From Eledone cirrhosa (lineage: Eukaryota), in NCBI GenBank assembly GCA_964016885.1, contig OZ024761.1, positions 28,148,001-28,212,000 on the forward strand: DNA of 64,000 bases, in the 5' to 3' direction. The notes below the pieces were generated by a model. The model was not told the DNA's origin. It was given only the letters and a program-made list of their open reading frames with translations, and did not search any database. The translations under genes and the position numbers were made by a program. Positions 19,741 through 19,887 of the stretch are shown here, piece after piece. Positions within the stretch are counted from its first letter, which is position 1, and every line of letters begins with the position of its first letter.

Positions 19741-19887
19741 CTGGTGATCCTTCGTTTATCAAGATGGCTCGGTGAGCCAGGTCGGCGTCGAATGGAAGGA
19801 CTACGAGATTCTCTTCTCCTGGAGCTACGACTCTGGCTTCGGCTGTAGTCACGACCATGGCTGTGTGATCGGCTCGGACTTAGTCGC
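19741..19887 (-). CDS. Srrm234: Srrm2/3/4-family splicing factor, exon encoding an RS tract and the N-terminal half of the eMIC domain
   Basis: Acceptor ttctctatcaacag|G, donor CAG|gtatgt, 147 nt, phase 2-2. Translates RLSPSRSHSHGRDYSRSQSRSSRRRESRSPSIRRRPGSPSHLDKRRIT(S), matching the recalled SRRM3/SRRM4 eMIC motif RRRDSPSHLEARRITSARKRPIPY. Confidence 0.88.

Follow-up and report, generated by a model that had tools for sequence, protein, structure and literature searches.

An eMIC-encoding exon of a predicted megabase-long Srrm234-family gene in Eledone cirrhosa, and a second, intronless locus that is probably a retrocopy

The window analysed here is the whole stretch of 64,000 nucleotides at G000:C22:28148001-28212000 (contig C22, OZ024761.1) of the 3.0-Gb genome of Eledone cirrhosa. 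It carries three minus-strand exons of a gene model of the Srrm234 family together with the introns around them. In window coordinates the features are:

1..19740, minus strand, the portion inside the window of the 21,281-bp intron dividing the eMIC domain; scans of this intron gave no RS-rich alternative exon
19741..19887, minus strand, exon E10, the ninth among ten coding exons, which codes for the first portion of the eMIC (SRRM_C) domain, ending in RRIT and two bases of the next codon; placed by Pfam PF15230 positions 12-55, by splice sites and by a contig of sequencing run X4
19888..27186, minus strand, intron E9-E10, 7,299 bp, phase 2
27187..27606, minus strand, exon E9, 420 nt, RS-rich; placed by splice sites and a match to residues 319-461 of the Haliotis protein P0007
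27607..50527, minus strand, intron E8-E9, 22,921 bp, phase 2
50528..50608, minus strand, putative exon E8, 81 nt, the weakest in the model; placed by splice sites and phase fit
50609..64000, minus strand, in-window part of the 76,427-bp intron E7-E8; exons E2-E7 lie outside the window, up to G000:C22:29385348

Exon E10 is 147 nt long, with acceptor caacag and donor AG/gtatgt, and its peptide ends in SPSHLDKRRIT, as the original prediction, made from the letters of the window alone, had read it. The proposed in-frame joining to two upstream exons is also borne out, E9 and E8 having AG/GT ends, lengths divisible by three and a common phase 2 across introns of the sizes given above. Against the Pfam profile PF15230 (SRRM_C) the 48 residues of E10 scored 31.8 bits (cut-off 27, E 2.2e-07), and among three matches of this profile in the 3.0-Gb genome E10 was the only one over the cut-off. 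Judged by its sequence, the match of E10 to eMIC is not due to chance, because its score exceeds the cut-off, it is the sole such match in the genome, and the exon is single-copy as DNA. E10 itself is an ordinary member of the known eMIC family. No solved structure matched this exon, and homologue searches with it, which were weak and say nothing on absence in squid, returned 6 and 4 proteins with no named cephalopod among them. E9 matched Haliotis P0007 with E 0.03; for E8 neither a Pfam match nor a clear alignment with other molluscs was found.

The remainder of the domain lies 1.5 kb outside the window. The original prediction had placed the ARKRP-coding exon, with a start of the form T-GCN-CGN-AAR, beyond the last 19.7 kb of the window and had taken the intron splitting the domain to be longer than this. 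No ARKRP-like peptide was found in any minus-strand frame of positions 1-19740, and the expected exon, E11 (G000:C22:28146459-28146284, minus strand, ARKRP to stop), begins at 28146459 with T GCA CGG AAG AGG CCA, preceded by a long pyrimidine tract, giving a measured E10-E11 intron of 21,281 bp. The second PF15230 match (C22:28146426-461, positions 56-67) corresponds to this exon, and the eMIC is complete at the C-terminus over the two consecutive exons E10 and E11. In the 38-residue core across the E10/E11 junction, the residues identical number 36 in Saccostrea, 35 in Haliotis, 33 in Lymnaea, 30 in Mytilus and 22 in Antedon. Two further profile matches were inspected and rejected: that of PF15230 on C2 (E 7.6) is by chance and not Srrm234, and that of cwf21 on C9 (E 0.8) is not Srrm234.

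Exon E9 is contained in four sequencing runs, none of them listed as RNA, which speaks neither for nor against its expression; one of the four, X4, is RNA-like, of a kind and tissue not on record, and holds 0.93 of the sampled words of E9. Over window positions 19300-21500 the contigs of runs X1-X3 continue through E10 into the intron. A single 363-nt contig of X4 has its positions 225-363 on 19741-19879, and therefore exits exactly at the 19741 donor, its other 224 letters lying off the genome stretch; X4 depth also drops at the E10 donor. These observations point to the use of this donor in the RNA-like run, as had been predicted. The length of the off-stretch part, 224 letters against the 226 unique nt of E11, suggests that this contig joins E10 to E11.

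The C22 region 27.95-29.47 Mb was taken, and 27.95-29.41 Mb was searched with 13 stored proteins and in part by splice-site scan. The cwf21 profile rose over its cut-off at two places in the genome, C22:29384840 and C26:19508415. The C22 model consists of ten colinear coding exons, E2-E11, on the minus strand, spans 1,239,036 bp and has a predicted product of 600 aa. The exons above the window are:

C22:29385348-29384844, minus strand, E2, with ATG at 29385319
C22:29172375-277, minus strand, E3
C22:28642779-612, minus strand, E4
C22:28419730-662, minus strand, E5
C22:28362744-682, minus strand, E6
C22:28275140-036, minus strand, putative exon E7; placed by splice sites, phase and composition

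All nine introns are GT-AG and phase 2, with lengths of 212, 529, 223, 57, 88, 76, 23, 7 and 21 kb. E2-E6 and E9-E11 are alignable with molluscan proteins, an RS-rich region precedes the eMIC, and the cwf21 exons anticipated upstream are present on C22 on the same strand, in order and phase. E7 and E8 are predicted from splice sites, phase and composition, and more small exons may be absent from the model. Independent support comes from the O. sinensis model XP_036369324, in which E3, E4 and E5 are joined to one another and to the start of E6, where the model stops. From sequence we infer that E2-E11 belong to one transcript. Annotation of the gene seems to exist in pieces only, such as an O. 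sinensis model of 192 aa labelled 'uncharacterized', and this may be the reason why it is easily missed. Exon 2 (L006:1504-1980, minus strand) contains coding trinucleotide-repeat expansions for poly-Thr, poly-Pro and poly-Ala. At the E5/E6 boundary the Haliotis Srrm234 isoforms X1 and X2 (P0129 versus P0007) differ by an 8-residue insert, possibly a microexon in the regulator itself; a search for it in the 57-kb octopus intron gave two candidates, neither of them similar.

The genome is not single-gene for this family but carries two Srrm234-family loci, the second on a different chromosome-scale contig (G000:C26:19508247-19509308, plus strand). This C26 locus consists of one open reading frame of 353 aa that opens with the canonical SRRM2 start. 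Its matches include human SRRM2 1-161 (E 7e-56), the 26-residue SRRM2 chain of 6qdv and fungal Cwc21/Cwf21 chains, and it holds the only genome-wide occurrence of the pattern GSGTNG[YF]V. No eMIC or RS exon was found in 140 gap-free kb of its surroundings. None of the four introns of C22 in the corresponding coding stretch is present in C26, whose end coincides with that of the short molluscan isoform and carries the basic tract of the forms of about 220 aa; many stored lophotrochozoan-type proteins are of about this length and end at the exon-6 boundary. Among 13 metagenome loci, the intron after EEQG is indicated by a GT donor in 11 and by a stop directly after EEQG in a twelfth, while L183 reads through. 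By this comparison the EEQG intron, present in C22 and absent from C26, is ancestral. The A-runs at +147 and +726 of C26, which would be the candidates for a poly-A remnant, lie within simple-repeat DNA. Proteins of the C26 type are present in O. vulgaris, O. sinensis and Sepia pharaonis. C26 is best read as a reverse-transcribed copy of the short isoform, older than the octopus/cuttlefish split. A complete member of 258 aa, P0002, lies on an ENA contig of 358 kb; since other ENA records break off at the first intron, P0002 is probably intronless as well. In L183, a contig of the metagenome collection, the Srrm234 frame runs without interruption through residues 1-209; L183 may be a transcript contig or the intronless copy of another animal. 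C26 (L005:1333-2394, plus strand) also shows coding trinucleotide expansions, for poly-Pro, -Gln, -His, -Asn and -Gly; it has 353 aa, the O. sinensis protein 289 and that of Sepia 259.

The two octopus genes have diverged in different parts of the protein. Identity to Haliotis in residues 1-26 is 10/26 for C22 and 23/26 for C26, and in exon 4 it is 17/55 and 40/55, respectively, both differences going in the same direction against all nine other outgroups; in the cwf21 block the two are equal (22/28 each), and in exon 3 the values are 20/30 for C22 and 17/30 for C26. C22 is thus diverged in its first 26 residues and exon 4, and conserved in cwf21, exon 3 and eMIC. Its exon 4 is identical to that of O. 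sinensis in 55 of 55 residues, and therefore the diverged form is now constrained. The start of C22 may resemble that of vertebrate SRRM3, which has kept cwf21 while its first residues are not canonical. Apart from low-complexity matches, a search with the first exon of C22 gave a single cwf21 protein (E 0.92). The exon-4 search gave only O. sinensis, one of two candidates, and among named squid or cuttlefish proteins none of the C22 type turned up, in weak searches that are silent on absence in squid. In the Atlas, SRRM4-like clusters took the top rank for P0134 65-192, with a score of 0.81 that lies under its bar, and were set aside. In a tree of 38 rows the C26 clade, which includes Sepia (support 100/99), falls among the molluscan single genes. 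The C22 pair has a stem about 2 changes per column long and no firm placement, and it does not group with C26; a clade uniting C22 and C26 is not rejected (p-AU 0.307), which does not demonstrate such a clade.

In Haliotis, Pomacea and Apostichopus, each with one gene, the models have two continuations past RRIT, S-ARK with the eMIC and R-S without it, and isoforms of both kinds have the canonical N-terminus. A non-eMIC last exon was sought in C22 by two scans, in which five known alternative tails used as control clear the threshold; no RS-rich exon was found in the 21.3-kb intron, and nothing credible in the 198 kb downstream, a stretch with two 200-N gaps. The gap 4.5 kb past E11, at C22:28141772, could hide an alternative exon. 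Reading through the donor of E6 gives DRYVLF and a stop, that is, the DRYV ending of the short isoform, so that non-eMIC products may persist; the nearest AATAAA/ATTAAA downstream of E6 comes at a distance of 1,975 nt. Reading through the donor of E10 gives RYVV... and a stop, with AATAAA 430 nt past the donor. The truncated product that the original prediction gave for this read-through, RYVVFFIYTYNN followed by a stop, is indeed encoded, but as a real isoform it is unsupported, X4 depth falling at the donor. Likewise, the description of E10 as an eMIC exon of the 'ancestral Srrm234' gene stands as far as the family is concerned (PF15230), but the ancestral state of one gene with two jobs does not: the N-terminus is degenerate here, the canonical start is on a second, intronless gene, and no non-eMIC alternative last exon was found.

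Published work is cited here from excerpts of the respective papers. The eMIC interacts with U2AF1/2 and SF1, promoting spliceosome assembly on microexons, and is neuron-restricted in non-vertebrate bilaterians by processing of one Srrm234 gene, while vertebrates have separate genes (PMC8797185); in Drosophila the control is exerted at the 3'-end (bioRxiv 2021.02.24.432780). Of SRm300/Cwc21 it is reported that it stabilises the switch loop of Prp8 (PMC5835773) and that it has a conserved N-terminal part interacting with the spliceosome (PMC7671692). Vertebrate SRRM3/SRRM4 represent a separate gene with a C-terminal eMIC beside a paralogue without it (PMC10551640; bioRxiv 584003).

On balance, C22 is probably a dedicated activator of neural microexons, because its intronless copy C26, a probable retrocopy, is likely to have taken over the core role in the spliceosome; both the neural expression and the activity of C22 are predictions. 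The short isoform would have been retroposed in the coleoid ancestor, giving C26, which would have assumed the role at the catalytic stage of the spliceosome. The parent C22 would then have lost constraint on its Prp8-binding start and on exon 4, and lost the non-eMIC ending, while keeping the eMIC. Such a protein would no longer dock on Prp8 as SRRM2/Cwc21 does. Full-length C22 transcripts would carry the eMIC by default, and neural restriction would therefore rest on transcription, as for vertebrate SRRM3/4. The eMIC itself would bind U2AF1/2 and SF1 and so promote spliceosome assembly on microexons, as taken from other species. That C22 may be transcribed in neural tissue has indirect support from O. 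bimaculoides, in which long genes are neural-biased (PMC7222433), C22 being itself of great length. It is also possible, as a more tentative proposal, that coleoids independently reached the vertebrate arrangement, a retrogene from the short housekeeping isoform having replaced the core function and the parent having become a megabase-long, transcriptionally neural, eMIC-fixed regulator.

In its cwf21-RS-eMIC order C22 agrees with the non-vertebrate Srrm234 genes, i.e., that of Drosophila and the single genes of Haliotis, Pomacea, Saccostrea, Lymnaea and Apostichopus; the eMIC core is identical at 30-36 of 38 positions in four molluscs, and the isoform boundary at RRIT is common to them and C22. 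In contrast to these, the octopus has two genes, and C22 has a degenerate start and exon 4 and a non-eMIC last exon that was not found. Like SRRM3/SRRM4 (nSR100), C22 is a separate gene with a C-terminal eMIC next to an eMIC-less paralogue, whereas the octopus split is of independent origin, likely by retroposition, with the eMIC retained by the parent and the core role by the new copy; for C22, neural transcription is a proposal. With SRRM2/SRm300/Cwc21 it is C26 that shares the matches described above, but C26 is intronless, has 353 aa and lacks the long RS region, and C22 lacks most similarity over the first 26 residues.

The duplicate could be real while its regulation is still ancestral, C22 being broadly transcribed and the eMIC restricted to neurons by 3'-end choice, for instance by intronic polyadenylation after E6 or E10, as in Drosophila under Elav/Fne. 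We regard this as rather unlikely, yet it has the published non-vertebrate rule of post-transcriptional control behind it (excerpts of PMC8797185), and it agrees with the stops reached by read-through of E6 (DRYVLF) and E10 (RYVV...), with the many cryptic poly(A) sites held by very long introns and with the AATAAA 430 nt past the E10 donor. The RYV endings are, however, a mechanical outcome of a gtatgt donor, the first poly(A) signal after E6 is distant (1,975 nt), X4 depth drops at the E10 donor, and a truncated C22 product would be without the intact N-terminus on which the function of the short form depends.

Improbable is a fission of the gene into two transcription units, one with the cwf21 exons (E2-E6) and the other with the RS/eMIC exons (from E8 or E9 to E11) under a promoter of its own. 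The O. sinensis model spanning only E3 to the start of E6, the lack of read evidence across the large introns and the sufficiency of the eMIC alone for activity (excerpts of bioRxiv 2021.02.24.432780) are in its favour, but order, strand and phase agree throughout with a single molluscan protein, acceptors and open frames are present in all of E7-E9, and where introns are as long as 529 kb, models in fragments are to be expected. Least probable of all is an older DNA-level duplication with later loss of introns from C26, or deep paralogues lost in other molluscs, with no coleoid retroposition. C22 and C26 are indeed not joined in the tree, and no scar of retroposition was recognised at C26; against this, C26 is without all four C22 introns over the same stretch and stops at the end of the short isoform, its clade is placed among the molluscan single genes, and a joint clade with C22 is not rejected.

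If the retroposition of C26 and the dedication of C22 to microexons are true, this would be a second, independent split of an eMIC gene, by a different route than in vertebrates, and an exception to the published non-vertebrate rule, apparently unreported, in that invertebrate lineage whose nervous systems are the largest. It would also offer a clean example of isoforms becoming genes and direct access to the microexon programmes of cephalopods, a knockout of C22 being then possible without disturbing core splicing. Our full-text searches, covering papers without their supplements, returned no published account of the octopus two-gene split; Torres-Mendez et al. 2019 (Nat Ecol Evol), who reportedly traced the eMIC across animals, lay outside their scope and may already note copies.

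A long-ORF scan of the 1.46-Mb C22 locus, whose reach does not extend to the small exons of nested genes, gave 308 frames, those listed being like transposon debris. In the intron above E8, window positions 52362-53585 (plus strand) carry two neighbouring non-repetitive frames of 153 and 225 aa with a GIY-YIG-like motif, which we take to resemble a Penelope-type element; Pfam gave no supporting match for this label. Window positions 41688-44083 and 55219-57210 are long tandem-repeat arrays with stop-free frames of 400-800 codons on both strands and strong GC skew. At 11-17 kb past the end of the C22 gene lies a LINE-like retrotransposon (G000:C22:28129593-28134919, frames at L009:3866-6919 and L009:1593-2798, both plus strand), with a 1,018-aa frame matching RVT_1, zf-RVT and Exo_endo_phos, and an upstream frame of 402 aa without Pfam match.
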